A DNA stretch of 64,000 nucleotides, from contig JAWSUS010000003.1 of NCBI GenBank assembly GCA_033549025.1, forward strand, positions 1 to 64,000, in the 5' to 3' direction. The notes under the pieces are model-generated. The model made no database searches, was not told the origin of the DNA, and worked only from the letters and a program-made list of their open reading frames with translations. A program made the position numbers and the translations under genes. This DNA is from Desulfuromonadales bacterium. Its GTDB lineage: Bacteria; Desulfobacterota; Desulfuromonadia; Desulfuromonadales; SZUA-540. This document shows positions 1-15,104 of this stretch, in pieces; positions within the stretch are counted from its first letter, which is position 1; every line of letters begins with the position of its first letter.

Positions 1-69
1 GGTATGCGTTCCAAGTGACACCTCCTATGAGCCTCTTAGGCTAACAGATTGGTGTCCACTTTTTCCAGC

Positions 70-237
70 CTACCTCACGCGCGAGTTCTCATAGATCCAG
101 TCCCGGGCGTCGCTGGCTTCTGCTGCCTTGATGACCCTTTTTAGGCTGTCCTGGTGCTCCAGGGCCGCTTCCCGGTTCTCCAGGGCAAGGTTTCTGCCGA
201 TCTCGAAGCCTCTCTTGTAGTTTTCCTTCTGTTCCAT
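70..237 (-). CDS. Small hypothetical protein (55 aa), paralogue of 473..688
   Basis: Hand-translated as MEQKENYKRGFEIGRNLALENREAALEHQDSLKRVIKAAEASDARDWIYENSRVR*. GGGAGG RBS upstream. Below the ORF-track length cut-off. Confidence 0.65.
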   Translation of the reverse strand: MEQKENYKRGFEIGRNLALENREAALEHQDSLKRVIKAAEASDARDWIYENSRVR

Positions 238-280
238 TCTTCAATTGACCTCCCTTTTTGGTGGTGGTGGTGGTGGAATT

Positions 281-396
281 GCCCTTTTTATAGTGCAAAG
301 CACAGTGTATTGCTAGTAAATAGTTTGGCACCATTTATAGTGCAATTTGGTTCTACAGTGGTTTACTAATAAATCTTTTGGCACTATATATAGTGA
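281..396. promoter_or_regulatory. Three imperfect palindromic sites (GCACTATATATAGTG type) in an AT-rich ~50-bp imperfect duplication
   Basis: GCCCTTTTTATAGTGC 281-296, GCACCATTTATAGTGC 328-343, GCACTATATATAGTGA 381-396. Confidence 0.55.
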
Positions 397-415
397 AAAC
401 GGCTATGTTTTGCCC

Positions 416-453
416 AAAAAAAGAGGGGCCGCACTGCTACGGTCCCCCTTTCC
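416..453 (-). terminator. Rho-independent terminator after ORF 473..688
   Basis: Minus strand AGGGGGACCG-tagcagtg-CGGCCCCTCT followed by a U-tract. Confidence 0.6.
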
Positions 454-472
454 GCCCTCCACCTGCTCTTGC

Positions 473-688
473 CTAGCCGGCAGAATTCAAAACCGAGTCG
501 ATCCCCTCCAGGCACCCTTCCCTTTCCCAGTAGTCGTAGTCCTGCGGGCCGCCGTCTTCCTCCCTTGCGGCCTTCGCCCTCAATAGCGTGTCCTGCCACT
601 GCCGGGCCTTTTCAGGGTTGCCGGTCGCCAGCATTTCCCCGATTCGTCTTCCACAAGTGATTGCCGTTTCTTTTTCCGTCTGTTCCAT
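473..688 (-). CDS. Small hypothetical protein (71 aa)
   Basis: GAAAGGA RBS, downstream terminator, and similarity to 70..237. Confidence 0.65.
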   Translation of the reverse strand: MEQTEKETAITCGRRIGEMLATGNPEKARQWQDTLLRAKAAREEDGGPQDYDYWEREGCLEGIDSVLNSAG

Positions 689-740
689 TGCTCAATTTCC
701 TTTCATTTCAATATGTTGCTGGTTGATTGGCGGGCCTTTT

Positions 741-861
741 TGCTGCCAAACTGCTGCCAAACTGCTGCCAAACTGCTGCCAAACTGCTGCCAAACTGCTG
801 CCAAACTGCTGCCAAACTGCTGCCAATTTGCTGCCAATTTGCTGCCAATTTGCTGCCAATC
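741..861. repeat. 11-bp tandem array, 11 copies of TGCTGCCAA(AC/TT/TC)
   Basis: 7x TGCTGCCAAAC, 3x TGCTGCCAATT, 1x TGCTGCCAATC, immediately downstream of the DotA/TraY stop codon. Confidence 0.97.
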
Positions 862-866
862 TGCTA

Positions 867-3035
867 TCAACTGGATGTCGAAAGTTCGCGGTCTGTCTTG
901 CTGACCTTCGCCTCGTCCTCGCCTGCCCGGCCCCGGGCTTTTCGATCCGCTCCGGCGCCGGGTTCCCCGCCTTCGCTGCCGCCCGACATTGCTTTTTTGG
1001 CTGCTGCACCAGCGCCGCCGCTCATCGGTTTTGTTGCCGCAACGGCAATACCGCGAAGCCGTCCTTCGTCCTGCACCTCGCCTAGATTTTGTTCAAGTTG
1101 ACCGATCCAGCGGATCACTTTTTCCGGAAGATATGTGACCAACCCGAAGATTTTATGGGCAAAAACAACGAAAATTGCACAGAGAATGACGCTTTGAGCA
1201 ATCCAGGTCAGAACTCCAGTCACCCGGCCCGCCTGGACGCTGTTATAGTAAACAAGGAAGCTTTCCCCGATAAAATTTCCGACGACTGCAAAAATGACCA
1301 TAGCAGAGAACAACCCGGCCACCATCAGGGGAGGTCGCGCCAGCACCCCAAACAGCAGCAAATAGCCTTGTCTGCCGTGCTGCCCGGCCATACCCTCCCC
1401 TTCCGGCAGCATGTGTGCGACGGCCCAAAGAGGGGCGGCAAAGAGGGTTTCAACCACCAAAATCAGCCAGCTGATAACGCTGCCGATCCAGAGAACGAAG
1501 GGCAAAAGAGGCAAGTAGAAAGCACAGAACAGGCCGACACCCAGGAGAGTGACAGCGACGGCCCCGACGAGCTGAACAGCGCGGTCAACAACGACTTGCA
1601 AGCCAGATGTTGCGGCATTAGCCCCGCCCAGGGTTATGAGATCCACGACAGGGTTAGAAGCTGCCGCGTCGCCTGCGGCGGTCAGTGCCTGGAGACCGAT
1701 TGCCGCAACCCAGGCGGTTTGCATCCCGCCAATCAGCATATGGCCCCAGTCTGCCAGCGCGGTAATCGGGTCATTTTCTGAGAGCTTCCGCGCCACAAAG
1801 TAGACAGGCCCTTGGCCGTCCAGGCCGATAGCGTCTGTAATAAACTTCGTTGCCCTGACTATCACGGAATCCTCATCAACGCCCTGTTGTGCGGCATTGT
1901 ACCGGGCCTGCCGGGCTTCGCGGGCTTTCGCTTCTGCTGACCACCAAAGTGCATCAAACGCCGGGTCGTTGCTGGAGAAAGAAGCAAGCCGGGCTTGACT
2001 TGCGGGCCTCATCTGAGGCATTCCGCTGGACAAGTCGTGGCTGTAGCCTGAGAACCGGCTGAGAGTCCAGTAATAGGACCCCAGCATCAACCAGCCGTCT
2101 TTCTGGGCCTGCTCGATAAAGCTGTCTAGGCCCTCTTGAAACCGGGGGTTGTTTTGGTTGATGATTTCGCCCAAAACCGGGGTGATCCTCGCCGTGTATT
2201 TGTCCACGGCATTTAAAATAGTGTCCGGGTCCAGTTCACCGGGGGCCGGGACACCATTGTCCTCAAGTTCCTTTTCACTCATGACCGACGCGGCCAGGGT
2301 ATGCGCGGCAGGCTGCAAGGCGCTCAACATGTCAAACATTCCCTGCGCCCGGGCTTGGCAAACGCGGTCCTGGTGGGAGGTGCAAGGAATGATGATTGCG
2401 CCCATTTCTGCGAGTTTTACCGAAGAATCCGCCGGAGGTTCGAAGAAAAGAACGTACTCCGGCCGCTCTGGGGTCGGGTTCGATACCCGGACGATCTGGC
2501 TGAATTCCTGCTGCAGCTTGTAATTCATGTAGCGCTGGGCGGCCATGATCTGGAGCGCCTGCCCGGCTATTTCTTCGGCGTTCTGGCGCAGGGATGGCGG
2601 CGCGGAAACTGTGACCTGGCCGCCGTTGGCCTGGAGGTATGAATAGCCATTCCCTGCCAGGTAGTTGGCAAAAGAAACGGAGTGCCCGACGCAAGCCAAA
2701 ACCACCACCATGAGCATGGAAAGCCCTTTGGCGGAGGGGATCAGCAGGGCGACGCCTACCGCCCCGCGCACGGGGGTCCAGAGGGTTGAGAGCTTGCCCA
2801 AGGGCTTTCCCTCGTGCGCCGTGCCGATGATTCCAATGCTTATCGAGTAGCACAGGACAAGCGTTCCGATGGCTAGGGCAACAACTGACATTGCAGACAA
2901 AAGGGAAATAATCAGGGTTGCCGCTTCGCCGGCAGCGCCGCCGCTTGTGATCTGTCCGAGATTTTCCCAATTCTCGCCAAAAAGGGCTTTTAGCATTGAG
3001 CCGCTGACGTCGCCGGCGGGGATATCTTCAAACAT
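867..3035 (-). CDS. traY: DotA/TraY family conjugative inner-membrane protein (type IVB / MPF-I)
   Basis: N-terminal D-x-S-x-x-x-L-x-x-LFG and GTAHEGKPLGK..LWTPVR motifs; DGWLMLGSYYW; C-terminal YLPLLPFVLW, APLWAVAH.PEGEG, RPPLMVAG and LPEKVIRWIG motifs typical of DotA/TraY. Confidence 0.9.
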   Translation of the reverse strand: MFEDIPAGDVSGSMLKALFGENWENLGQITSGGAAGEAATLIISLLSAMSVVALAIGTLVLCYSISIGIIGTAHEGKPLGKLSTLWTPVRGAVGVALLIPSAKGLSMLMVVVLACVGHSVSFANYLAGNGYSYLQANGGQVTVSAPPSLRQNAEEIAGQALQIMAAQRYMNYKLQQEFSQIVRVSNPTPERPEYVLFFEPPADSSVKLAEMGAIIIPCTSHQDRVCQARAQGMFDMLSALQPAAHTLAASVMSEKELEDNGVPAPGELDPDTILNAVDKYTARITPVLGEIINQNNPRFQEGLDSFIEQAQKDGWLMLGSYYWTLSRFSGYSHDLSSGMPQMRPASQARLASFSSNDPAFDALWWSAEAKAREARQARYNAAQQGVDEDSVIVRATKFITDAIGLDGQGPVYFVARKLSENDPITALADWGHMLIGGMQTAWVAAIGLQALTAAGDAAASNPVVDLITLGGANAATSGLQVVVDRAVQLVGAVAVTLLGVGLFCAFYLPLLPFVLWIGSVISWLILVVETLFAAPLWAVAHMLPEGEGMAGQHGRQGYLLLFGVLARPPLMVAGLFSAMVIFAVVGNFIGESFLVYYNSVQAGRVTGVLTWIAQSVILCAIFVVFAHKIFGLVTYLPEKVIRWIGQLEQNLGEVQDEGRLRGIAVAATKPMSGGAGAAAKKAMSGGSEGGEPGAGADRKARGRAGEDEAKVSKTDRELSTSS

Positions 3036-3037
3036 TT

Positions 3038-3520
3038 TTAGGCCCTCCCCAGAATCCAGTCTTTGAAGAAGAAAAACCGTTCACATTCAAGAACCTGCAC
3101 ACGCCAGTAACGACAGACAACCACGACAATTGACATAAACAGAATCAGGCCCGCGCTGATGATCGGGAATAGAGCGCCGGTTTTGTATCCGAAATACAGG
3201 CCATAGAATGACCCCAGGCCGAAAATGAAATAGATAAAGATCTGAACTTTCATAACCTGGATGACCTTCGGCAACTGCTCCCGCGTGATCCCCCAGTGCT
3301 CCAGGACTTCATCAAAATTGTTCAGGTCTGGCGCTCCGGGGGCGTTCGGGTCGCGGTTAGCATGGAGGCCTTTCAGATGTTGCTTGATCCGGCTTGTCGA
3401 ATTCCTGATGATCTGGTGAGCGTAGCGCCGCTCGTAGGGGTTGACGCCTGCCTTGACGGCCTCGACGTGGCCCCGGGCGAACCATCGAAAGGGTTTTGTG
3501 GTTTTGCTGAAAAATCCCAT
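3038..3520 (-). CDS. IcmV/TraX-like membrane protein
   Basis: 160 aa; FDEVLEHWGIT..L segment, two hydrophobic helices, C-terminal RYWR..L....F.F..W. Directly upstream of dotA/traY, as icmV and traX are. Confidence 0.65.
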   Translation of the reverse strand: MGFFSKTTKPFRWFARGHVEAVKAGVNPYERRYAHQIIRNSTSRIKQHLKGLHANRDPNAPGAPDLNNFDEVLEHWGITREQLPKVIQVMKVQIFIYFIFGLGSFYGLYFGYKTGALFPIISAGLILFMSIVVVVCRYWRVQVLECERFFFFKDWILGRA

Positions 3521-3638
3521 GGTTAGCGCCCTCCGATGTTCTGCAGCAGGCTGAGAAAACCGGCCCCGAAAAAGAAACCCCAGATCCAGCCGCTTGCTTT
3601 GATTTTGAATTCATCGCTAAAAAGTTTTCTTTTCATTG

Positions 3639-3980
3639 TTATTGGTCTCCTTTCAGGGCTGCACAGCATTGACCAGCCTGGTTGCAGTCGCTGTGTTTTT
3701 CATTGATTCGAATAACAGCATCGGTACTGCCTATTTTTGCATGATAGTTTTCAAGGTCTGTCAGCCGTCTGTATTTGCGTTCGATCCTGTCAAGCTGCTT
3801 TCTGAGTACTGTTTCTTTTGTTGAATCGGCTTCAAGTACTGCATCAGCGATTGCGCCTTGAGTTTCGCACATAGCAAGCCCGGTGTTGATCAGTTTGAAT
3901 TGCAGTCTCCGAAACTTATTGTTTGATACGATTACTTGAATGTCACTATCTGGCATTGAATTAAAGCAGGTTCTAAGCAT
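3639..3980 (-). CDS. Hypothetical protein (AT-rich coding sequence)
   Basis: 113-aa ORF with AAGGAG RBS, in the same run as 3986..5353. Confidence 0.55.
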   Translation of the reverse strand: MLRTCFNSMPDSDIQVIVSNNKFRRLQFKLINTGLAMCETQGAIADAVLEADSTKETVLRKQLDRIERKYRRLTDLENYHAKIGSTDAVIRINEKHSDCNQAGQCCAALKGDQ

Positions 3981-3985
3981 GATTG

Positions 3986-4288
3986 TTATTCTCCTTTCTT
4001 GCTGTATTTGTCGACTTGTTTTTGCAATATTTGACGGGCGGCTTCGCTTTTGCTGATCCCGGCCTCCCGGGCCAGACTTTCGAGTTTTTTAAACTGCTTT
4101 TCTGTCAGCTTTATGTCCATTTTCTTGATGATTTCCCCGCGCTCTTTCTTTTTCGAGATCTGCGGTCGGCCCCGGCCCAGCCCTTCGCGCAAAAAATCTG
4201 CGATGTGCCGGCTCTCCCGGGCCGATAGTTCGGCCAAGGAGAGGGAAAGGGCTGCATCCAGGGGGAGGCAGAGGACTTTTTTATTCAC
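3986..4288 (-). CDS. Tandem ribbon-helix-helix (CopG-like) DNA-binding protein; start uncertain (4288 or 4321)
   Basis: C-terminal MDIKLTEKQFKKLESLAREAGISKSEAARQIL fits the RHH pattern; the N-terminal half is a second RHH-like unit. Confidence 0.7.
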   Translation of the reverse strand: MNKKVLCLPLDAALSLSLAELSARESRHIADFLREGLGRGRPQISKKKERGEIIKKMDIKLTEKQFKKLESLAREAGISKSEAARQILQKQVDKYSKKGE

Positions 4289-4880
4289 TTTCTTCACTTT
4301 CTGCAGTCCTTTGTGCATCAAAAATTTTTCTCATATTTTTCAGTTCTTCCGCCCAACCCTCCAGCGTCATCTTCCCCTCATGCGTCCGACGCTTGGTCCG
4401 GTTGTAAATATTTCTGAAAGACTTTAAGTGCTCCTTGAATTCCTCCACCTCTTTTTCAAGCTCAGCAACTCGATTCAACGCCGCGTTGAAAGCCTGCTGC
4501 AGCCCATCCTCGGTCGGCGGAAGCAGATCGTCCTTGCCTGGGATATCCTCCTTGTTGACCTCCATCACGCCCAGTTCGCGGTCTGTTACCTGCATGACCT
4601 TGTAATACCTGACTTCCTTGTCGTTTCCCCTCTTGCTGTAGGCGACGATTTTGGTTCCCATCTCCAGGTAATCCCCTGCCTTGACAGCATCCTTGACCAA
4701 CAAAACGCCACCGCCGTCTCTTTTTTCCAGGAAAGTTCTGTCTAGCCCGCCCTGGATACTCTTATCTTTCCAGACCAATGCGCCCCAGCGTTTGCGGGAC
4801 TGCACGCTGTATCTCGTGTCCAGGAGGTCCAAGGGGTTGTCGATAGTGCCGTCCTCGATTTTCCAGACCATGTATTCCAT
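4281..4880 (-). CDS. Hypothetical protein with C-terminal coiled coil
   Basis: 199-aa ORF with strong AAGGAG RBS. Confidence 0.75.
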   Translation of the reverse strand: MEYMVWKIEDGTIDNPLDLLDTRYSVQSRKRWGALVWKDKSIQGGLDRTFLEKRDGGGVLLVKDAVKAGDYLEMGTKIVAYSKRGNDKEVRYYKVMQVTDRELGVMEVNKEDIPGKDDLLPPTEDGLQQAFNAALNRVAELEKEVEEFKEHLKSFRNIYNRTKRRTHEGKMTLEGWAEELKNMRKIFDAQRTAESEESE

Positions 4881-4939
4881 TTTTCAGTTCTCCTTTTTTG
4901 TTCTGGAGGGGCGAACTCTGCCGCCCCTCCGGTGCTTTT

Positions 4940-5353
4940 TTAAGCGGCTTTTTTTATGCCGCTGATCTGTTGATAGGGCTTATCCCATTGCCCGACGCTG
5001 ATATTGAAATAAAAAGCAGTGTGGAAGTAGTCGGTCATGCTGTCCGACTTGTCGAACCATTCTTGACCCCCTACCGCCTTGCCTGGGGCCGTCCTGATGA
5101 TTTCGACAATCTGATCAAAAAGCTCGGCGTGCTCGCCCAAGTTTTCCGTCCAGTGGTGGTTAATCTGTACGTGCTGATGTTCCTTGTCGTAGTCCGACTT
5201 AAACAAATCACTAAAATCGACAGGGGAGGCCATGATTGAGACATTCACAGAACTATGGTGGTGACGCTGAACAGAAAACTTAAAGTCCTTTCCGAACTTT
5301 TCTTTAAGTGCTTTTCTGATTTCTTTGACTTCCTCTGTGCTGATGTATGCCAT
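4940..5353 (-). CDS. LPD29-like (large polyvalent protein-associated domain) protein
   Basis: EIRKALKEKF..KFSV....SSVNVS and SDSMTDYFHTAFY motifs recalled for LPD29-family proteins of conjugative elements and phages. Confidence 0.7.
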   Translation of the reverse strand: MAYISTEEVKEIRKALKEKFGKDFKFSVQRHHHSSVNVSIMASPVDFSDLFKSDYDKEHQHVQINHHWTENLGEHAELFDQIVEIIRTAPGKAVGGQEWFDKSDSMTDYFHTAFYFNISVGQWDKPYQQISGIKKAA

Positions 5354-5391
5354 TTTTCAGTTCTCCTTTTTGATCTGTTTAAGTTGTCTAT

Positions 5392-5420
5392 ATATTACCC
5401 CTGCCAAAGGTATTTTTCAA
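5392..5420 (-). promoter_or_regulatory. Sigma70-type promoter for the LPD29 to dotA/traY gene run
   Basis: Minus strand TTGAAA-17 bp-TAATAT, ~40 bp upstream of the LPD29 start. Confidence 0.55.
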
Positions 5421-5695
5421 GTAAAAAAATCGTTTTTCTTCTTTTTTTTCAGGTAGTTACGTGTTTGGTTTTAGGGGGTAAAAACCCAACAAAAATAGCA
5501 AGGGTTTTGCTCGGAAAAGAACCGCCTCCGGCAAACCACCACCCCTTCCCCACCCGGTTTTGACTTTGGTTTTGACTTTAAAGAGCAACAGCGACCGGCC
5601 GGGAATCTTTGCGACAGGCGCGTGAGCGCAGGCCCACCGGCCTGTGTGCAACGCAAAGCGTTGTGCATAGGCCGCGGGACTTCTAGCAGAAACCT

Positions 5696-8203
5696 TCAAT
5701 CAAAATCCGGTTCCCAGTCGCTCGCAAGCTCCAATTCAAGCTCCAGTTCTTTTTCTTCAACTTCAGGCTCTGCCGCTGCCTCTTGTCGGGTTTCCAGTTC
5801 CGGTGCGGCTTCCCGGTAATCCAAGCTTGTTTCTTTTTGCTGGGATTTCGCCATTGCCTTCTCCAGTTTTTCCAGGTTTTCAGCCTCAGCGACGATTGAC
5901 CGATCAACATATAAATGGGCGCTGTCTCTGTGCCTCGACATTTGAACGTAGCTCATTTCACGGTTCGTCATTGAGCCGCCGCCCAAGACAAAGGTTTGAC
6001 CGACGGTCACGCCCTGGGCTTTATGCGTCGTGACTGCATAGCCATGGCTTAAATGGCTGTATTTGTCAGAATCGAATTGCACGCGCTCCCCCGAATCCAG
6101 CTTAACCGTCATTCTCCACCCCTCATCCTTACCCGGGATCATCCTTTCCAAGGTTCCCAGAGTTCCGTTTTTGACACCAACCTGTTTGCTGTTCCTCTCA
6201 AAAAGGATTCGGTCTCCTTCCTGAAATTCCAGTTTTCCCCTGCTTTCCGTCTGGATCTCGGCCCCAGGCCCCAGGCGCTTTTCGCTTTTTAAAGTTTCAC
6301 GGGCAAGGGTGTTGAGCTGCTGAACCTCGACCCTTGTTGAAGCAAGCATTAAAGCCTCGGCAGGTCTTGCTTTGTCCCACGCCTGCCGCCAGTCCTGCAC
6401 CATGATTTTCATGGTTTCGGCGCGGTTTTCTCCTATATGCAGGCATCCCCGCTGGGAATACTCACGCAGGGCCTCGGCGGCTCGGCCTGCTGCAAAATGA
6501 TGGGTTGCTTGCACGGCCCAGGCTTCGCGCTGCCGTCTGATCTCAGTCAGTTCAGCAAAGCCGGTTTTGCTAGAAATCGCTTTAAACGCGCCGCCGGCGT
6601 CCACCGGCTGCAGCTGCTTGTCATCGCCGACCAGGACCAGCTTTGCGCCGGATTGCTGGCAGAGGTCTACAAGCCGGGCGGTTTGCCGGCTGCCAACCAT
6701 GCCCGCCTCATCAACGACAAGGACCGACTTGTTGTGAAGCTTCGTTTCGCCTGCCTCGATCTCTGCAAGCAGGGAGTGGATTGTCTGGCTCTTGATGTTG
6801 CTTCCTTCTTCCAGTCCAGCGGCTGCCTTGCCAGCCAGCGCCGCGCCCCGGACTTCATACCCTGACTTTTCCCAGGCTTCGCGGGCTGCGCCCAAGAGAT
6901 AGCTTTTTCCCGCTCCGGCCATGCCGACCAGGGCGCTGACCTGGTTCGGCTTGGCGATAAATTCCAAGGCCGCTGCCTGCTGGTCTGACAGGGTTCTGGA
7001 AGACCGGGCGGCCTCCAGGGCTGCCGGGGTGACAATGTGTGTTGCCCGGGCGGCCATGCTTTCTGCGTTCTGCACCATGTTCCTTTCGATCTGGAGCATT
7101 TCTGCAGTCGTGAAACGTTCTTGTCCGTCTTGGCCGATGAGCCGCACAAGATCAGGGGATTTGTGCAGATCTTCGACAAGGGATTTTATTTCCCTGTAGT
7201 TCATGACCCCCTGGGCTTCGACGGCGACTTTCCGCACCAAGTCTGCTTTTCTAAAAGTTGACTGGCGTTCCGTGAGCTTTAAAAGGATCTCTTCTTTTGT
7301 TGGGCGGGATGGTGGTTCTGTCGCCTGGGCGGCCTTGACTGCCGCCATGTCAAACCCGAACTCCTTGCCCGTGGCTTTCCATTCCTCAAAAAGCTCGCCC
7401 CTGGGCCGGTATTCTTTCTCTTGCCGGGTGTCCAAAGCAGCCACCTGGGCGGCCTTGGCGCCGCTGAATCCTTTTTCCGCAAGCGCCTTCTCGATGGCCT
7501 CTCGGCGCTTACTGAACTCTTTTTCAAGGTCTTTCGGGCTTCCCACGATCCGGAAGGAATCGCCGTCGCGTTCAACTGAGAAGCCCATTTTTTGCATTTC
7601 AGTGGCCAGCTCTGCCCGATAAATAGCGCCGGCCGCCATTTTGTTTTCGAACATCTCCAGAGGCTCTAAAGTCCCAAAGGTGCCGTCTTGCCTGGCGCAT
7701 AGGTTTGCTACCAGCATGTGGGTGTGAAGTTGGGGGTCCTGGGCGCGGCTTGTGCTGTGCTCATAGCCTGCACAGATCAACCCTGCCGGGCGCTCCGCTT
7801 CGGCTCCGCCCTTGCCCCGCCGGGTGACAGCGCAGCCTTCCAGGTGGTCAAGGGCTGCCCTTACCGCACGATCCTGGGCCGCCTGGATCTTCTGCCGGGT
7901 CTCATGATCGGCTTGACTCCAGACCGTCGAAACCGACTTTGGCGCCGAAAAACAGAAGTCCCAGCCGGGGCGGTGATTTTCGCGGCCGGCGCTCTGGACT
8001 AGAGGCACGACGGCGCCCAGGTGGGGGTCATAGCCATTAAACAGGCGCCGATAGTTATCTGAATCGATCTGGCCTGCCAGGTTTAGTGACTGACAGCCTT
8101 GGCCCAACCACTGCCCCGGCGGTTCGCCGCCGGCCTGGTAGTAGTCTTCACTCGCCAGATCTGCCCAATAATCAATGTCTCTGATGATATCAACTGTCAG
8201 CAT
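5696..8203 (-). CDS. MOBF (TrwC-like) relaxase-helicase
   Basis: N-terminal DYW..DYY tyrosines, [27 protein letters not shown] (HUH), FSKRR; RecD-like helicase motifs [35 protein letters not shown]. Confidence 0.95.
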
Positions 8204-10380
8204 TAGAACTCCTCTTCTTCTTGGTCTTCGTCAATGCCCGGCACGGTGTCGGCTGCCGGCGATTTTGGCCCTGATGGGCCGCTCAAAACCCCGCCACCCA
8301 GCGCGGCTAGCTTGGCAATCATGTCGGTCTCTTCCAGTCCCGGCATCATAATTTCCATGACTTCCCCGGCTGCCTCTTCCTGCGCGTCGGCTTCTTCCTC
8401 CTCCGGCTCTGCTGGGTTTTCTTTGGTTTCCTCTGCCGCGCCTGGGGGGAGAAATTCAGGGTCAACCGGCGCGGTCTGCTGGGGTTCTCGTTCTGGTTCG
8501 GGGTCTGGTTTGGGCTTTGGTTTGGGTGCCGGGGCTGGTTTTGCTTCTGGTGCGGCCTGGCTTTGCTCCTGGGCCTGATTTTGTGCAGGGCTTCCCCCTT
8601 CCCCGCCACCAGCCCGTTTCTTTTCTTCTTGCTCCTGCTGCATCTCCCGGTGAAAATCAATGACCTGCTTGGTCTTCCTGCGCTTCGTCCACGCTGCCGG
8701 CTCATCCTCAGAACGAACTATTTTTGCGTCCACCCAGGGCCAGAGCAATTTATAGACGGTTTGGCCACCAGTCAGCAAAAGCCCTTCGACCGCCTTTTGT
8801 TTTTGGCGGTTTCCGAGAGTTGAGAACTCGTCCGGCCGCACGATATATTCATCTTGCTCCTGCCAGCTGTCTTGTCGGCTGTCGCCTGTTGATCCGCCAA
8901 CCCCGCCGCCGGAGTAGCTGGCAACATATTTCCGGGTCTTCTGCTTTCCGCACAATTTTGCAAGAAATTCGGCGGTCTCGACTGCCAGCGCACGGCCCAA
9001 GAAGTAGGTTCCAATATTTGAGGTCCAGTTCTCGGCGGTGTGCTCTCCGTAAACTTCTCTTATTTGCGAAATATTTTGACTGCCGATTATCATCCTGACC
9101 CCTTTCGACCGGCCGACTTCCAGCATTTTTGTTAATGTTGGGACTTTCCCGACTTGTATAATTTCATCGAAGACAAACCAGATTCTTCTGGTTCGTGATT
9201 CAGTCATTGTGGGGCTTGATACAGTCGCACCTACAACTGACATGATGGCTTGAATATAGCTTTGTTCTAGCTGCTTATATCTTTCATTCCCCTGCAGAAT
9301 GATGATTCTATGCTTTGGGTTTTTGTGTTTTTTGTCGGTCAACAACCATTTTCTGATTGAAATGGCAGGTTTTTTATTCCAGGCAGCGGCTAAATCAGAC
9401 ACGGTTGACATGTAGGAACTCAAAACAATCAAAAATGATTGTGAGGTCTTTGTGATTTCTTCGCTTTCGACCAGTCCTGACGCCTCCGGCGTATATTTGT
9501 GAATGATTGATCTGAGGTGCTTGTAACCCTTGGCGATCTCCCTTAGGACGTCCTGCAGGTCCCATTGATCCCTCTCTTTAATCAAATAGACCAGCACAGC
9601 GGTCAGGATCGCCCTCGCTGCATTCGCCCACATCGGGTCTGAGCTGTCTTTGATGAGCGCCTGGGCGAAATTCCGGGCATCCGCAATATTTTGGAGGTCT
9701 TCCGAGATTTTCCACGCCGCGCACCGCTTGTCCCAGGGGGCGAGAATTACCCCATCAAATCGCTGCGTCCATTCGCCTTTGTTGTCGTATATTAATAGTC
9801 TGTCGCCCCGCGCCGCTGCCGCCCGAGTGATGGGAAAAATAAAGGTGGTTTTGCCCGCGCCGCTGCCCCCGACCGCGAAAATATGTTTCGTTTCTCGGTC
9901 CAGACTGATCGGCACCCCGGGGAAGATTTCAATCCCGGCTTCCCCTTTTCCGATCTCTTTTTTCATCTCTTTTTTGAGTGCTTCGACAGCTGTTTCTTCC
10001 TCCTCCAACTGCCGCCCTGCAAGATGTTCGACAGCGGGCTGGGGGGTTGTGAGCCACCAGCCGATCCAGCCCGCCAGGGTAGCCCCCAGGACGCCGACCG
10101 ATGCGGTGGCCTGGGGGGAATAGCAATAAGGCATGGGGAAGCGGGTATAAATGATCTTGAAGCTCCGGGCAGACCCAAAAAGATCGACCCCGGCCAGCCC
10201 CAGGGCTGATTTAAGGATGGCCACGGGCCGCCAGCCGTTTTGCGCAAAAATTGGCAAGTTGCTGATAGCCCAGGCAGCTGCATAGGCCCCCAGGGCCAGC
10301 CCCAGAGCCGCGAAGGTCAGGGAGCATAGGGTTGTGCCTTGTAGGTCTCTGGGTTGTCTCATTACCTTCTTTTTGTCCAT
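8203..10380 (-). CDS. Type IV coupling protein (TrwB/TraD-like)
   Basis: Two N-terminal TM segments, Walker [16 protein letters not shown], Walker B WFVFDE, GRSKG, QNISQI; long acidic Pro/Glu tail. Confidence 0.93.
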
Positions 10381-10404
10381 GGGGCGGGCCTCCTGCTATC
10401 TTTT

Positions 10405-10761
10405 TTAACGGCTTGTCGGGCGCTGCTGGGCGGGTTGCGTGGGTTGCGCGGGCCGTTTCTTTGCGATCTCCAGAGCGAGCGTGTTGCTTTGGCGGACAAT
10501 TTTGTCTTGGCCTTCGGCGAGCAATTTCATCATCTCTGCCAACACCGTGAGCCTTTCGGTCAACAATGTTTCTATGTTGCCGATTCGGTCAGCGGTTCGG
10601 GTTTCGAGTCCGGCGAGGCGGGAATCGAAATTGATCCCTTCCACGCCCTGTCGCCACCCCTGGCGAAGAGCATCAGCTAGGGTAGATCCAGACTTGTTTG
10701 CTTCCTTCTCCAGCAAATCAAAATCAACTTGGTTAAGTCTGACGGTCACTCTTTTTTCCAT
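10405..10761 (-). CDS. RHH relaxosome accessory protein (TrwA/MobC-like)
   Basis: RVTVRLNQVDFDLLEKEANKSGSTLADALR RHH pattern; first gene of the accessory-T4CP-relaxase operon. Confidence 0.75.
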   Translation of the reverse strand: MEKRVTVRLNQVDFDLLEKEANKSGSTLADALRQGWRQGVEGINFDSRLAGLETRTADRIGNIETLLTERLTVLAEMMKLLAEGQDKIVRQSNTLALEIAKKRPAQPTQPAQQRPTSR

Positions 10762-10781
10762 TTTTCATTCTCCTTTTTAGG

Positions 10782-11039
10782 TTGGCTGCCAACGGCAGCG
10801 TTGGCGGCTATTTGGCTGCCAAACACTATTTATGCCTGGCAGCGTTGGCAGCTATTTGGCTGCCAACGTGGTTTTTTGTTTGGCTGCCATTGGCTGCCAA
10901 CGGCACAGGGCCGTTTTTGCACGGGTTTTCGGTTTTGCGCGGTTTCTTTTGGCAGCCAGCGACTAGCAAGGTTGGCTGCCATTGGCACAGCCCTAATTTG
11001 CTGGGCTGTGCTTGGCCGGGCTGCCCTCCTGGCAGCCAA
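10782..11039. repeat. Cluster of ~8 TTGGC(T/A)GCCA(A) palindromic boxes in the oriT region
   Basis: Copies start at 10782, 10812, 10856, 10880, 10890, 10949, 10972 and 11029, plus a 29-bp direct repeat (10794-10822 / 10838-10866). Confidence 0.9.
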
Positions 11040-11043
11040 ATCA

Positions 11044-11072
11044 CACCCGGCTGGGTGAGTCGGGTGTGTAAG
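11044..11072 (+). other. Predicted MOBF oriT, nic between 11067 and 11068
   Basis: CACCC-GGCT-GGGTG hairpin followed by AGTCGGGTGT/GTAAG, resembling the F (GCGTGGGGTGT/GG) and R388 (GGTGCGTATTGTCT/ATAG) nic sites; lies upstream of the trwA-like gene. Confidence 0.65.
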
Positions 11073-11096
11073 AAAAACTATGTCGCCTTTGGGTGG

Positions 11097-11813
11097 TCAA
11101 TATCCCAGCGCCATCCACCAGGCCGGCCCATGAGTGATGTCAGCTACCATGTTGGCGCCGAATCGATCCACTGAGTACGCCTGCCCGCTCGTCGCGCTGG
11201 TGGAGTTCCGATTTGCTGTGACCTGAATGCTCACACATGCAGTCGGGAAAGGGATAGGGAACGGCTTGTATCGAACAGCATTAGTTGTCACCAATCCCCA
11301 TTGAATAATCAGACCATTGGGCAATCGGGTCCAGCCGGCCGCACCAAGGCTGCCCTCGGCCCCTGGCCAGGATGTCCGGGGAACTCCCCCAAGGGTGATG
11401 GACCCGGCCGTCAGGCTGTTGGCCTGGGCTGAATTCAGCCTGGAAGTGCTGGCAGGATTGACATAATAGGAACTGTCTTGCAGATCCCGCATTTCCCCGG
11501 CCAAAATCGACGCTTGGCGGCTCCATCCTGCAGGATCTAGGTAGTAGGAAGGGTTGTCCCTGTCCTGAAAGTAGGACCCCGAAACGACGCCCCCCTGGAC
11601 CTCCCCGGGAGAGTAGACAGACCCGGCAAGGACCTGGCCGCCGGAATACATGGAGCCGGCCTGCACCTGCCCGGCTGCTGTGATTGAGTAGCCATGCAGG
11701 TTCTGGTGCTGGTTTTGCGCAACCCCAGGAGGGGCATAGCTGGTGGAATCAGCGGCAAAAACGGGGAAAGAAGGTAGCAACAAAAGCAGCAGGAAAATTT
11801 TTTTCATTTTCAT
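11097..11813 (-). CDS. Secreted adhesin-like protein with PilV/fibre-like repeats and a phage tail-fibre (gp53-like) C-terminal domain
   Basis: Signal peptide MKMKKIFLLLLLLPSFPVFA; two D..YY(L/V)(D/N)PA..SR repeats; C-terminal GWTRLPNGLIIQWG..FPIPFPTAC..WMALGY. Confidence 0.75.
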   Translation of the reverse strand: MKMKKIFLLLLLLPSFPVFAADSTSYAPPGVAQNQHQNLHGYSITAAGQVQAGSMYSGGQVLAGSVYSPGEVQGGVVSGSYFQDRDNPSYYLDPAGWSRQASILAGEMRDLQDSSYYVNPASTSRLNSAQANSLTAGSITLGGVPRTSWPGAEGSLGAAGWTRLPNGLIIQWGLVTTNAVRYKPFPIPFPTACVSIQVTANRNSTSATSGQAYSVDRFGANMVADITHGPAWWMALGY

Positions 11814-12013
11814 CACCTGATCTCCTTGCACAGAAATAGGCCATCCGCCAAACCCGTAAAGTAATGAAATTCATGGGTTTTACGGGCTTCAAGGGGTGCT
11901 GACCAGAGGATGTTTCTCAGGGTCTTGTAATCTATGTTCAGCCCCAGATGATTGATGGATTCGAGCCAGTCAAGGACTGGCTCTGTGAGGTTTTGTTGAT
12001 TAGTTTCGGGCAT
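11813..12013 (-). CDS. Small hypothetical protein (66 aa)
   Basis: Abuts the upstream stop codon and has a TGATG overlap with the adhesin start; GGGGAGG RBS. Confidence 0.65.
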   Translation of the reverse strand: MPETNQQNLTEPVLDWLESINHLGLNIDYKTLRNILWSAPLEARKTHEFHYFTGLADGLFLCKEIR

Positions 12014-12502
12014 TTATGCCTCCCCTACACGATGAGATATGGCCGCGCCCGGCGCAGAGGTGAGGTCCATGCCCTTGCGCTGGTAATAGTCGGCCAGGCT
12101 TTGCCCACAAGTCGCCCAGCCGGCGGTCGGCTTCATTCGGTCAACTTCCTTTATTTTTTGAAGGATTTGCGCCCGGGTGGCTTTGCCCGAAAAAAACAGC
12201 CGATGCATGGATTGGAAAACCTTGTAGCTGTCAGGGTCGCCCGGGGTGAATCTCTCCCGCGTCCGCTGGGCCTGCTGGCGATCGGCGCGGGCCGCCCCGG
12301 CCTCCCTCACCATCCGCAGAAAAACGATCGGCGCGGGTTGGGAGGTGAAGGTTCTTTCGAGCGTCTTGAGGGCATCTCTCGCATCCTCGGCTGCCTCTCC
12401 TTCCAGATCCTGGGCCAGCCGCTCCCTGGCAGCGCGGGGGTAGTCCCTAGCAAACATCATTTCGATCGTCTTGACCGCTTCCAGTGCGTGTTCTTTCTTC
12501 AT
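12014..12502 (-). CDS. Hypothetical protein, possible replication partner or helicase loader
   Basis: ATGA overlap with the rep gene; position equivalent to lambda P. Function inferred from position only. Confidence 0.6.
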   Translation of the reverse strand: MKKEHALEAVKTIEMMFARDYPRAARERLAQDLEGEAAEDARDALKTLERTFTSQPAPIVFLRMVREAGAARADRQQAQRTRERFTPGDPDSYKVFQSMHRLFFSGKATRAQILQKIKEVDRMKPTAGWATCGQSLADYYQRKGMDLTSAPGAAISHRVGEA

Positions 12503-13371
12503 CTGATCTCTCCTTTCTCGTACAACTCCATGAAGGTTTCGAACGGCTGGGGGCCTTCCCCGCCTTGCTCCTGCTCCTCTTTTCTTTTCCAGCCAGCCAT
12601 CTGCCCTCTGTCTTCCTCAGACAGCCCGCCTTGGTCGATTATTATTCTGTTTTTCGCCTTCCGTGCCCAACCTGTCGGGCTGAACGGAGGGCCACCAGCA
12701 GACCCGTACAGCAAGCCCAGCCGCAGGTATTCCTTTATTTCTTCATCCTTGCTTGCTCCCCCGCCCGGGGTAGGGAAAGGCTGAGATTGATAGGAATCCA
12801 GACCACCACCACCTGACCGCTCATCTCCCTCCCCTGTCTCTTTTTCACCTCCCTCCTTGGTGGTGGTGGTATTCTGGTTTGTTTCAGTTCTGTGTTGAAT
12901 AAGATCTGTGCTGTATATATGGGGGGGTGAACCGTCGCCGGGTGAACCGTCGCCGGGTGAACCGTCGCCGGGTGAACCGTCGCCGGTTGACCCGCCATCT
13001 CCGGGTAACCCGATCATGGGCTTTTCTTCCTTTTTCTTTTCCTTGCCACGCCGCCTTTCTGCATAAAAATCAACATTCTGCGATTCTCCATAGATTTCCG
13101 ACACCCAGTTCCACCCTCCGTTCTGCAGGCGGATTTGCCGCCTTTTGACATACCCGGCACGCTCCAAATTCTCCATGGCCCTCCCCAGCCGGTCTTTCCC
13201 CCACCCCGTTTCTTTTTTGATCTGGCCGGGCCGGAATTCCCAGCCTGGGGGGCGGCTGATAAGCCGCACGAGAAGGCCCAGCTCATCGAGCTGGAGCCGG
13301 GGGTCGCGAAGAGTTTTGACGGGCAGCAGCTCGAACTGGCCAGTCGGTTTTACTATTTTGTAGATCGACAT
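12499..13371 (-). CDS. Phage-type replication initiator with N-terminal winged HTH
   Basis: True start MSIYKIVK at 13371; LRDPRL...GLLVRLISRPPGWEF....IKKETGWGKD...RAMENLERAGYV pattern; internal iteron-like repeats. Confidence 0.75.
   Translation of the reverse strand: MSIYKIVKPTGQFELLPVKTLRDPRLQLDELGLLVRLISRPPGWEFRPGQIKKETGWGKDRLGRAMENLERAGYVKRRQIRLQNGGWNWVSEIYGESQNVDFYAERRRGKEKKKEEKPMIGLPGDGGSTGDGSPGDGSPGDGSPGDGSPPHIYSTDLIQHRTETNQNTTTTKEGGEKETGEGDERSGGGGLDSYQSQPFPTPGGGASKDEEIKEYLRLGLLYGSAGGPPFSPTGWARKAKNRIIIDQGGLSEEDRGQMAGWKRKEEQEQGGEGPQPFETFMELYEKGEIR
12925..12984. repeat. Four perfect 15-bp tandem repeats GGGTGAACCGTCGCC (putative iterons/ori inside rep)
   Basis: Four exact copies plus degenerate copies to ~13012; flanked by an AT-rich tract at 12871-12920. 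Confidence 0.9.
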
Positions 13372-13375
13372 CGCC

Positions 13376-13687
13376 TTACCCCCTTCTTTCCCTGACTTCC
13401 TGGGCCTTGCTCTTTCTTCCCATTTTCCCTTTCCCTGCGGGGCTGCCTTCTGCCTCACCCCCTTCTTCCCCCTCTGGCTGATTTCTCTGGTCCAGCCACA
13501 GCAGCAGGGAGCGGGTAGGGTAAAGGACGGCCCGCCCGCTCTTGATGTACGCTGGCCCCTGTCCTTGACAACCCATGTTTGCCAGCCTCTTTTGAGACAG
13601 CCAGGGGAAATATTTTTGGATTTGCGCCCTGGGGATGACTGGCGGGAATCGATCTTCCAGGTCCAAAAAACTAAACTCTTTCTCCAT
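13376..13687 (-). CDS. Excisionase/AlpA-like HTH protein
   Basis: LSQKRLANMGCQGQGPAYIKSGRAVLYPTRSLLLWL matches the Xis/HTH_17 pattern; GGAGG RBS. Confidence 0.75.
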   Translation of the reverse strand: MEKEFSFLDLEDRFPPVIPRAQIQKYFPWLSQKRLANMGCQGQGPAYIKSGRAVLYPTRSLLLWLDQRNQPEGEEGGEAEGSPAGKGKMGRKSKAQEVRERRG

Positions 13688-13773
13688 CTGTAAACCTCCT
13701 TTTTTCTGCCTTGTTTAACCCAGGATATCCCCCCGCATCCAGAAAAAAAAGAGAGCAAATTTGAGGGTATTTG

Positions 13774-13801
13774 AATTAATTTGACATATGTCAATTTAAT
13801 T
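13774..13801. promoter_or_regulatory. Palindromic operator / back-to-back -35 hexamers between divergent genes
   Basis: AATTAATTTGACATATGTCAATTTAATT with a perfect TTGACATATGTCAA core at 13781-13794. Confidence 0.65.
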
Positions 13802-13844
13802 GGTAAAAAGAAGCCCTGACATATACAAAAGGGGGGGTTGGGGC

Positions 13845-14906
13845 ATGAGAACAAGGGAAGACAAGACGGGGAATCAAAATCAAGCTCTGCCCGCCAAGGC
13901 GGGCCGACCGAAGGGCAGCACGAGAGAACAAACAGCGTCCAAAAAACTAGATTTTTTGAAAACAAGAACCTGGGTTTGGACATCCTCCGCCCGGCTCTCT
14001 GAAGGAGGCGACCAGCCGACAAGCTACAGATTGAGCCGGGCGGCGAACCAGCGCAGGAAAGACGGCTACGGACCGACCCCCGAAGCCTGGGATCGTTGGA
14101 AGAATAAAGAGAGGGGGGTGACACAGGCCACCGTCGAATCCCTCTGGTCAGAGACCAGCGATGCCTTTTCCGTCGGCCCCTGGGTTGGCCCATGGTCCAT
14201 GCTGGCTGAAGGGACGCCCTGCCTTGGCAGCACATTTAAAGAAGACGTCGCGGCCGGCGCGGGGGGATATGTACCCCTGTGGGAGCAGATCAGAGGAAGT
14301 GCTAACCCCAAAGAAGCTTGGAAGAAAATCCCCAAATCGGCATGGGAAGCCTGGGCGCCGCAGCGACCCCTTGGCTTCGGAAAAATCAGCTTCGGAAAAA
14401 TCAGCCTAGCTTTAAAAAATAGCGAACTCATCCCCGGGAAAGACGAATTCAGATCCAGTGTGACCCTACATAATTTTTTGCAGAAAATCGCCAGAGAGAT
14501 CACCGCGCCGGCCTTGCTGGCCCTCGCGGCAAGCCTGTGTTTAGCGCGACTCGAAGGAAGAGAAAAAATATTGTTTTTCGACCCCCGGTTCCAATTCAAC
14601 ACAACGGAACAGTCCTTTAAATATTCACTATCCTCAAAGCAGCGGCCGCGAGTTCTCAACGCCCTCAAGGAGATAGACATCCAGTTCGACGAAATCGCTT
14701 TGATTTCAGGGGAATTTGGGTTAGAACTACTTGATTGCGGCAGCATGACCCTCGACCAGTACAAAAATCACCTGGGCCTTAAAGAGCTGATTGTCGACGC
14801 CCCTAGAAAAGAAGAAGATTGGCGGGCCATTTTCGAGCCACAAATCCCAGGGGTTACAAGGGGAAAAAATGGGACAATTTTGGGACAACGGGAGGAAGAT
14901 TTTTAA
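13845..14906 (+). CDS. Hypothetical protein, possible element regulator
   Basis: 353-aa ORF divergent from the xis-like gene; basic GRPKG N-terminus; no family recognised. Confidence 0.65.
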   Translation: MRTREDKTGNQNQALPAKAGRPKGSTREQTASKKLDFLKTRTWVWTSSARLSEGGDQPTSYRLSRAANQRRKDGYGPTPEAWDRWKNKERGVTQATVESLWSETSDAFSVGPWVGPWSMLAEGTPCLGSTFKEDVAAGAGGYVPLWEQIRGSANPKEAWKKIPKSAWEAWAPQRPLGFGKISFGKISLALKNSELIPGKDEFRSSVTLHNFLQKIAREITAPALLALAASLCLARLEGREKILFFDPRFQFNTTEQSFKYSLSSKQRPRVLNALKEIDIQFDEIALISGEFGLELLDCGSMTLDQYKNHLGLKELIVDAPRKEEDWRAIFEPQIPGVTRGKNGTILGQREEDF

Positions 14907-14969
14907 AAAATCCAGAAACATAACTATTTGTTTTTATTGATTTTAACGTACTAAAAACCCCGGCTCTCT

Positions 14970-15026
14970 GGTCTCAAAAACCGATGGCTTCTGGCCGTGC
15001 CGGTTCGATTCCGGCCTTCGGCACCA
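14970..15026 (+). other. att site: 3' fragment of tRNA-Leu(CAA), anticodon loop to CCA
   Basis: GGT-CTCAAAA-ACC anticodon arm remnant, long variable arm, GCCGG-TTCGATT-CCGGC T arm, CTTCGGCACCA end. The 5' acceptor strand and D arm are absent upstream. Confidence 0.88.
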
Positions 15027-15104
15027 CAGCAAATCAGGGCCGGGAGTACTTCTCCTGGCCTTTTGCATTTCTGAAATCGATCCCTTCAAAAAGGAGACAC
15101 ACCG

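Follow-up and report, generated by a model that had tools for sequence, protein, structure and literature searches.

A likely secreted adhesin with a phage tail-fibre-like tip on a tRNA-Leu mobilisable island and its predicted docking on the short PilV of conjugative pili

In a Desulfuromonadales bacterium, a gene next to a likely origin of transfer (11097..11813, minus strand) encodes a 238-aa protein, P0001, which starts like an exported protein and ends like the tip of a phage tail fibre. What could such a protein do for the mobile element that carries it? A sequence-only reading of the window, that is, the whole stretch of 64,000 nucleotides analysed here, had suggested a phage receptor-binding module repurposed either as a PilV-like recipient-recognition tip or as a surface decoy. 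We examined the gene, the island around it, its relatives and its possible partner.

The reading frame spans 238 codons without an internal stop (11100-11813, minus strand) and is closed by a stop codon at 11097-11099. The ATG at 11813 is preceded, at a distance of 8 nt, by AGGAG; a GTG at 11831, upstream of that ATG, is a possible alternative start. Residues 1-20 (11754..11813, minus strand) are a likely Sec signal peptide with a basic part (MKMKK), a hydrophobic part (IFLLLLLLP) and a V-x-A cleavage pattern (SFPVFA/AD), and hydropathy of the N-terminus peaks at 2.77 in 11-residue windows. Pattern, hydropathy and homologue alignment together bear out the signal-peptide-like start described by the sequence-only reading, and fit a cleavable Sec signal peptide on a protein without a pilin domain. 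The same reading had reported no prepilin N-terminus, and this agrees with our scans: the N-terminus holds neither a lipobox nor a prepilin motif, N_methyl (PF07963) had no match in the Pfam scan, and the Shufflon_N pilin domain (PF04917) had none in P0001 at E 0.1. We infer that P0001 is cleaved before ADST, because the V-x-A pattern stands there and homologues display the same motif after their hydrophobic stretch.

The remaining parts of the protein are all encoded on the minus strand of the same frame. Residues 21-37 (ADSTSYAPPGVAQNQHQ; 11703..11753) form a mature N-terminal peptide that is conserved while the rest of the protein varies and that makes up the interface in the complex model described below, in which the C-terminal domain of PilV is its predicted partner. 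A stalk of Gly-rich short repeats follows (residues ~47-82; 11568..11675), and then two fibre repeats of the form D-x-x-x-x-x-YY-x-[DN]-PA-x-x-SR (residues 84-125; 11439..11564). Both kinds of repeat had been recognised before. The two Tyr-Tyr repeats (DRDNPSYYLDPAGWSR and DLQDSSYYVNPASTSR) recur with a 26-residue period, but the second one reads D-x-x-YY and not D-x-x-x-YY, as had been written. Ahead of the variable tip lies a conserved joint, S-I-T-L-G-G...W-P (11364..11438), which was delimited by comparison with G189, a genome of the same genus; a 73-bp stretch of the joint region is 84% identical between the two, and the surrounding DNA is unalignable.

The tip (residues 163-238; 11100..11327) is a gp53-like domain, as had been proposed: PF21882 (Gp53-like_C) matched with its whole profile covered, at E 2.8e-16 and 60.3 bits against a cut-off of 24.9. 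The tip also matches PHROG tail-fibre families and, by sequence, the solved fibres AP22 gp53 (4mtm) and R2-pyocin / R-pyocin (6ct8/6cxb). P0001 shares the tip domain of these fibres but not their virion-attachment region, in place of which it has the signal and docking peptides. An AlphaFold2 monomer of mature P0001 reached a pLDDT of 52.8, and Foldseek gave no meaningful match with that model; an ESM Atlas search with residues 21-150 returned best scores of 0.84, which serve as leads only.

The gene belongs to an integrated element, the right part of which occupies window 1-15033. This part ends in attR (14970..15033, plus strand), where 64 bp from the 3' part of tRNA-Leu(CAA) are present as a second copy. 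The full tRNA-Leu(CAA), followed by an integrase, lies on contig C44. One end of C44 overlaps an IS contig present in multiple copies, and this contig in turn overlaps window 1-77; the join is not unique. On the minus strand, the genes run in the order possible xis, rep, a 162-aa ORF, adhesin, oriT, RHH protein, coupling protein, MOBF relaxase, small ORFs, TraX-like protein and DotA/TraY. Upstream of the adhesin are a possible excisionase-like HTH protein (xis; 13376..13687; weak PF12728, E 0.076), a phage-type replication initiator (12499..13434; PHROG match, with four internal 15-bp iterons at 12926-12985) and the 162-aa ORF, a possible replication accessory with no family match (12014..12502). 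Beyond oriT are an RHH relaxosome accessory protein (10405..10761; weak PF01402, with a counterpart in the island of genome G180 that passes the cut-off), a TrwB-type coupling protein (8203..10380; PF10412, 240 bits) and a MOBF (TrwC) relaxase-helicase (5696..8203; PF08751, NF041492). These are followed by a possible TraX/IcmV-like protein (3038..3520), for which the match is weak (E 0.011, below cut-off) and the position before traY lends support, and by a DotA/TraY family protein (867..3035; TIGR04346, 369.6 bits against a cut-off of 100). All these genes lie on the minus strand.

Pfam and NCBIfam scans, the complete G189 copy included, found no mating-pair or pilus genes beyond TraY and the weak TraX-like match. 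With its att duplication, integrase, oriT, relaxase and incomplete mating-pair system, the element answers to the description of an integrative mobilisable element: it is a ~18-kb tRNA-Leu-integrated MOBF mobilisable element with its own TraY/TraX and without a pilus. At its right end, divergent from xis-rep, stands a 368-aa ORF (13800-14906, plus strand) that is 95% identical in G189 and has no match in Pfam, NCBIfam or PHROGs; it is possibly a regulator. A 29-bp direct repeat (4870-4898 and 5343-5371) marks the starts of the LPD29 gene and of a 199-aa gene.

That the adhesin gene neighbours an oriT, as the sequence-only reading held, is well supported. The likely nic region (11044..11072, plus strand) consists of a hairpin, CACCC-GGCT-GGGTG, followed by AG-TCGGGTGT, a layout paralleled by the nic site of R388, where a hairpin is followed by ten bases (PMC4814116). 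The 14-mer at 11054-11067 occurs only once in the 3.39-Mb genome and is kept in three related elements, namely those of G189, locus L013 and the distant G180 island; between the window and G189 a core of ~40 bp (11053-11094) is kept. From this layout we estimate the nick at 11067/11068, and the adhesin gene would therefore enter the recipient first. Next to the nic region are eight copies of TGGC(T/A)GCCA iterons (10774..11041), likely sites for the adjacent RHH protein. In G189, TGTGCACA repeats take the place of these iterons and the RHH protein is 52% identical. The RHH gene and its presumed binding repeats have thus been swapped together (window 10405-11041 versus L008:16088-16760) while the nic core was kept, which reads as a natural specificity switch in the relaxosome if the presumed sites are those of the RHH protein.

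Comparison with related islands indicated which parts of the adhesin are kept. In G189 the whole element lies on one contig, with about 18.4 kb between both att copies, and comprises an integrase (317/327 identical to that on C44), a methylase-restriction pair and then the genes of the window in unchanged order. Most proteins are 79-100% identical between the two, as against 52% for RHH and 43% for the adhesin, and the iterons differ. Per 100 bp, the identity of the RHH-oriT-adhesin block is 0.34-0.70, against 0.73-0.83 on the flanks. The three island copies (P0001, P0002, P0003) all have an open frame and an identical 9-residue peptide, while their stalks and tips differ. Repeats are missing from P0002, and P0003 is 43% identical to P0001 over the aligned part, compared with 83-97% for the flanking genes. 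The comparison of homologues for swapped C-termini proposed by the sequence-only reading thus came out positive: the adhesin has a variable C-terminal segment that differs among island copies, and for which a role in recognition may be supposed. PF21882 did not match the tip of P0003, which has a similar starting motif and may for that reason be a diverged version of the same fold and not a new domain.

The island of G180 has xis, rep, the oriT core, RHH, coupling protein, MOBF (62%) and TraY, and no adhesin gene in the corresponding slot. The adhesin is thus dispensable for this island type and, since the same oriT core is there without such a gene, its closeness to oriT is probably incidental. 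Other differences concern cargo: different restriction-modification genes lie behind the same integrase (C44:5412-6665 versus L008:3585-5401), an NgoMIV-like pair in G189 and another nuclease-methylase-like pair in the host. In L097 (9490-9830), a long low-complexity tract of 9-bp tandem repeats fills the slot held by the adhesin in the window's island. Islands with MOBF, their own coupling protein and DotA/TraY, and no other type IVB genes, belong to at least 2 families within the order, as seen from window 867-3520 and G180:C6 58000-72000, the latter with a different integrase and near smpB. Partial traY fragments also occur outside intact islands (G189:C1:1147373-1147711; G074:C107; G080:C18).

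Relatives of the adhesin fall into a large fibre background and a small group with the same start. Tyr-Tyr repeats are widespread as a fibre module: they were found in 442 representatives at E 0.001 and are common in long fibre proteins. By a crude filter, 100 of 152 repeat proteins had no hydrophobic start (median 1,511 aa), 48 had one and 4 were prepilin-like; judged by this filter (48/152), it is nothing unusual for proteins with such repeats to start with a signal peptide. A further set of Tyr-Tyr-repeat signal-peptide proteins (P0004, P0008, P0014, P0042, P0055 and others) starts with W-T-x-P-x-x-x-P-P-x-x-N.

The key feature, absent from the sequence-only reading, is the mature N-terminal peptide ADSTSYAPP. 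It is common to P0001-P0003, P0080 and P0143, with P0030 and the truncated P0124 being related. Three of the ADSTSYAPP proteins are island copies. A pattern scan of metagenomes gave 2 loci only, and the subfamily accordingly counts the three copies on islands, the one in a pil operon and three more proteins, P0080, P0124 and P0030, that came with no genomic context. Across 17 aligned peptides, mature position 6 is Tyr or Phe in 14. Searches elsewhere were negative: genome contigs searched with family alignment A2 gave 43 pattern matches, none confirmed; viral contigs searched with alignment A3 gave 34 matches and no confirmed relative; plasmids searched with P0003 gave no match. The N-terminal profile A4, run on 401 genomes of the phylum, had a strong match in the host only and two weak ones (E 0.0015 and 0.008).

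The pil operon is that of locus L012. Its P0143 shares ADSTSYAPPGV-x-QN and the PF21882 tip with P0001. The gene for P0143 closes the operon pilN-O-P-Q-R-S-(ATPase)-M-V and starts 19 bp behind the gene for a PilV of 386 aa. The nearest non-island relative of P0001 is therefore encoded directly behind pilV in a pil operon. P0143 and the collar-tipped relatives described below are in or with type IVb pil operons; the window copy is outside any. Elsewhere the Tyr-Tyr module is part of PilV itself, the repeats being fused inside a long PilV (L011; G128). From their sequences, fused and split PilV tips appear to be versions of one tip. The sequence-only reading had named homologues confined to prophage tail operons as the result that would speak against it; instead, the nearest ones are found in islands and in a pil operon behind pilV. 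The adhesin gene seems to have come most recently from a conjugative pil operon rather than from a prophage.

We then asked whether the peptide could bind PilV. The model of the L012 PilV (pLDDT 77) had CofB/TcpB at Foldseek ranks 1-6, with E-values of 0.004-0.03 and none at E 0.001. Residues 294-386 of the model aligned with the C-terminal half of TcpB (6mic) at Z 7.8 (rmsd 2.9, 89 aligned, tied rank 1), a middling match, and with H-type lectins at Z 4.8-4.9; among solved sequences, the PilV profile did not match CofB/TcpB. The C-terminal domain of PilV has the same fold as the gp53 tip (Z 4.5). In CofB and TcpB, a C-terminal domain trimer binds the N-terminal peptide of the secreted proteins CofJ and TcpF, respectively (PMC6048534, PMC9565799).

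A complex model of three PilV chains (205-386) with three mature 1-36 peptides of P0001 scored 0.82, versus 0.00 for the best of 3 controls. The score mark is reached by 116/157 solved pairs and 2/215 mismatched pairs, a calibration only roughly valid for a multimer with its own alignments. Runs agreed in at least 90% of contacts, and partner pLDDT was at least 56. In the model, peptide residues 1-17 lie on PilV 304-384, shared between two subunits. This score may reflect the solved look-alikes CofB-CofJ and TcpB-TcpF. We consider it very probable that P0001 docks on short PilV through its N-terminal peptide. The earlier idea of a PilV-like tip is thereby modified: the protein is predicted to dock on PilV via its first ~17 mature residues and is not itself a PilV.

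The arrangement seen in L012 recurs at other short-PilV loci. With 36 short PilVs as queries, 79 loci were retrieved, of which 38 had near full-length matches. We filtered neighbouring genes for a signal peptide plus D[SAG]T[ST][YF]xP. The filter matched at 13/38 full-length short-PilV loci, in 10 of them directly after pilV, and at none of the 41 other PilV loci; in the 3.39-Mb host genome, the gene of P0001 was its only match. Eight of the ten pilV-adjacent genes encode a phage tail-collar domain and two had no Pfam match, and all five short-PilV genomes without an adhesin nearby had one elsewhere. The collar-fused PilVs P0168, P0180 and P0187 do not have the C-terminal domain found in short PilVs.

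A 401-genome sample of another order, of sulfate-reducers, gave a similar picture. All 27 new top loci displayed signal peptide, peptide and collar; 17 of them are beside pilV, and six repeat genomes already in the set. The short-PilV profile matched 63/401 genomes. Both genes were present in 53 genomes, a peptide-including match only in 2, PilV only in 10 and neither in 336, after 13 collar-only matches, 11 of them without PilV, had been set aside. Hence 53 of the 55 genomes with a signal-peptide, peptide and tail-collar gene (55 by profile match, partly inspected) also carry short PilV. These counts concern collar-tipped relatives that have only the short peptide in common with P0001, and kin genomes among them are not independent; motif and profile counts are also partly circular, because the filter was written from hits and profiles A5/A8 were built from the same elements. 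Open frames of ~600 aa from this search were considered as fusions and ruled out, the adhesin ORFs being separate.

In G632 (C6 ~91600-95000; L160:7600-11000; L115, L119), four partial C-terminal cassettes, inverted and with a repeat in common, come after a secreted gene, and a tyrosine recombinase adjoins the array. This arrangement probably represents a shufflon that works on the gene of the secreted adhesin and not on pilV. Partial cassettes also occur in G629 near 624400-627500. Meanwhile, in Cupriavidus/Ralstonia (L055, L057-L065, L067, L068, L070, L071, L075, L076, L088), PilVs of ~415 aa are followed by a gene for a signal-peptide protein starting Q-L-x-x-[FY]-P-A-P-P-M-T-V-A-[DN]-C, with a polyproline linker and variable C-termini; those scanned had no Pfam match. 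These proteins are possibly a second socket-and-plug class.

Based on these findings, we consider it likely that the fibre adhesin is exported and docks on the short PilV tip of a helper, and that the island thereby re-tips the helper pilus for its own recipient specificity. Once a helper that has both a short PilV and an MPF-I machine arrives in the cell, the island would excise and replicate. The adhesin would be exported to the periplasm and trimerise, and its first ~17 mature residues would lodge, 3:3, in clefts of the trimer that short PilV forms at the end of a conjugative type IVb pilus, as the model predicts. Extension of the pilus would then carry the adhesin out through the PilN secretin, and the adhesin's tip would bind a recipient surface glycan. 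By supplying this adhesin and its own TraY/TraX, the island may compete with the helper's tip and favour its own transfer. PilV is known for its role in recipient choice (PMC9045228, PMC12282955), and TraY is the donor-side partner or target of MPF-I entry exclusion (PMC12282955).

The search for a helper found none, PilV being absent from the host genome. Among 233 genomes of the host's order, the PilV profile had 1 match, of the long fused type on a truncated contig (G128), and 6 passed the TraY cut-off; the TraY of G128 is 26% identical to that of the island. DotA/TraY was found in 0/10 short-PilV genomes tested, with the control likewise giving no match, and several short-PilV loci lie beside TrbI/VirB10. 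Adhesin and TraY may accordingly serve different helpers.

Other explanations share part of this evidence. Docked on PilV or released, the adhesin might chiefly act against the helper, displacing the helper's adhesin, closing receptors on the surface of its own host to incoming pili or phages, and so suppressing helper transfer or superinfection. The predicted docking on PilV would be the same in that case, and with a nick at 11067/11068 the gene would enter the recipient first, facing oriT as in a leading-region layout (PMC12282955). We regard this as unlikely: a pure competitor needs the peptide alone, whereas the three island copies keep whole, differing tips, and an island TraY, as the donor-side partner of entry exclusion, fits the promotion of transfer. 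Of the two roles first suggested for the receptor-binding module, the recipient-recognition tip gained support and the surface decoy found no positive evidence. It is very unlikely that the island took the gene over from a pil operon, next to its oriT, as neutral cargo that now serves no purpose. Its absence from the G180 island, the lack of PilV in the host and the exchange of the RHH-oriT-adhesin block as a unit would suit such cargo, but 3/3 close island copies maintain an open frame and the identical 9-residue peptide despite heavy divergence elsewhere.

Further possibilities concern how, or whether, the protein meets a pilus. As a pilin-less subunit it could co-assemble with PilV into a mixed trimer, or it could dock on a chromosomal pilus of the host, which has several pilus ATPases. 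By eye, the stretch that follows the peptide in P0003/P0143 looks similar to the beginning of the stalk in the long L011 PilV, and the shared fold of gp53 tip and PilV C-terminal domain points the same way; against this, the model puts residues 1-17 alone on the PilV C-terminal domain, and the distribution of the family tracks short PilV, which makes both variants highly improbable. Descent as a prophage tail-fibre remnant would account for the PF21882 and PHROG tail-fibre matches and for the phage-type rep upstream, yet it is hardly credible given the signal-peptide-like start and L012. The nearest relatives are in islands or a pil operon, with none confirmed in viral contigs, and no structural phage gene was detected among 16 island ORFs scanned with Pfam/NCBIfam (7 also against PHROGs), in agreement with the earlier remark that such genes are missing nearby.

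Docking of the adhesin on the helper's PilV would be closest to the CofJ-CofB (ETEC CFA/III) and TcpF-TcpB (Vibrio cholerae TCP) pairs, in which the secreted protein is encoded in the pilus operon and its flexible N-terminal peptide, which has an aromatic residue at its centre, sits in clefts between H-type-lectin-like minor-pilin domains (PMC6048534, PMC9565799). TcpF binds 3:3, and the predicted P0001-PilV interface is of the same kind. The differences are that the binding is predicted here, that the pilus is a conjugative one (PilV, Shufflon_N), that the tip is of phage-fibre type and not a colonisation factor, and that P0001 is encoded on a mobile island without a pilus. The peptide motifs also differ, D-S-T-S-Y-x-P-P here as opposed to FxxxYxSxS and SxGGAFT in those systems. 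The PilV shufflons of R64 and TP114 likewise place a variable C-terminal tip for recipient recognition on a type IVb pilus (PMC9045228, PMC12282955). There the variable tip is part of PilV, whereas P0001 is a separate exchangeable polypeptide with no prepilin start and no Shufflon_N. The secreted relative in G632 has a shufflon-like cassette array, as in I-complex plasmids.

A phage tail domain has already been proposed as the recipient-specificity module of a conjugative pilus by Milman et al. (PMC9881135), who described PilV-tail collar fusions; such fusions were recovered here (P0168, P0180, P0187). PilV-collar fusions and the notion of a phage tip put to a new use have thus been published before. 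Their PilV-collar is a single fused chain, while P0001 is a split, signal-peptide form on a pilus-less island. SGI1, with TraN_S/TraG_S/TraH_S, is a mobilisable island that remodels its helper with a few mating-apparatus subunits, including an entry-exclusion partner and a mating-pair protein (PMC5389848). SGI1 acts on MPF-F (IncA/C) and lacks a relaxase of the kind found here, whereas the window island encodes a MOBF relaxase and its own coupling protein, along with DotA/TraY (MPF-I) and the adhesin; remodelling of the helper is demonstrated for SGI1 and would be expected by analogy for the window island. In the literature that we covered, with most subscription papers and supplements outside its scope, we found no split, peptide-docked adhesin for a conjugative PilV, nor an island carrying one. 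So far, recipient choice in pilus-assisted conjugation has been ascribed to the C-terminus of PilV itself.

Beyond this island, we lean slightly towards the view that many conjugative type IVb pili have a two-part tip into which islands plug their own adhesin, the family of the window island being a counterpart of SGI1 for type IVB (MPF-I) conjugation. Short PilV would be the socket, and a secreted, phage-fibre-tipped adhesin would be the plug, inserted via its short N-terminal peptide. Because such a tip is detachable, parasitic islands could supply their own plug and redirect the helper pilus to recipients of their choice. If true, a detachable tip would explain why so many short PilVs lack an obvious variable end although their annotation reads 'shufflon tip adhesin'. 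It would also extend CofJ/TcpF docking from gut colonisation pili to DNA-transfer pili, and it would give the parasites of mobile elements a simple route to hijack host range.
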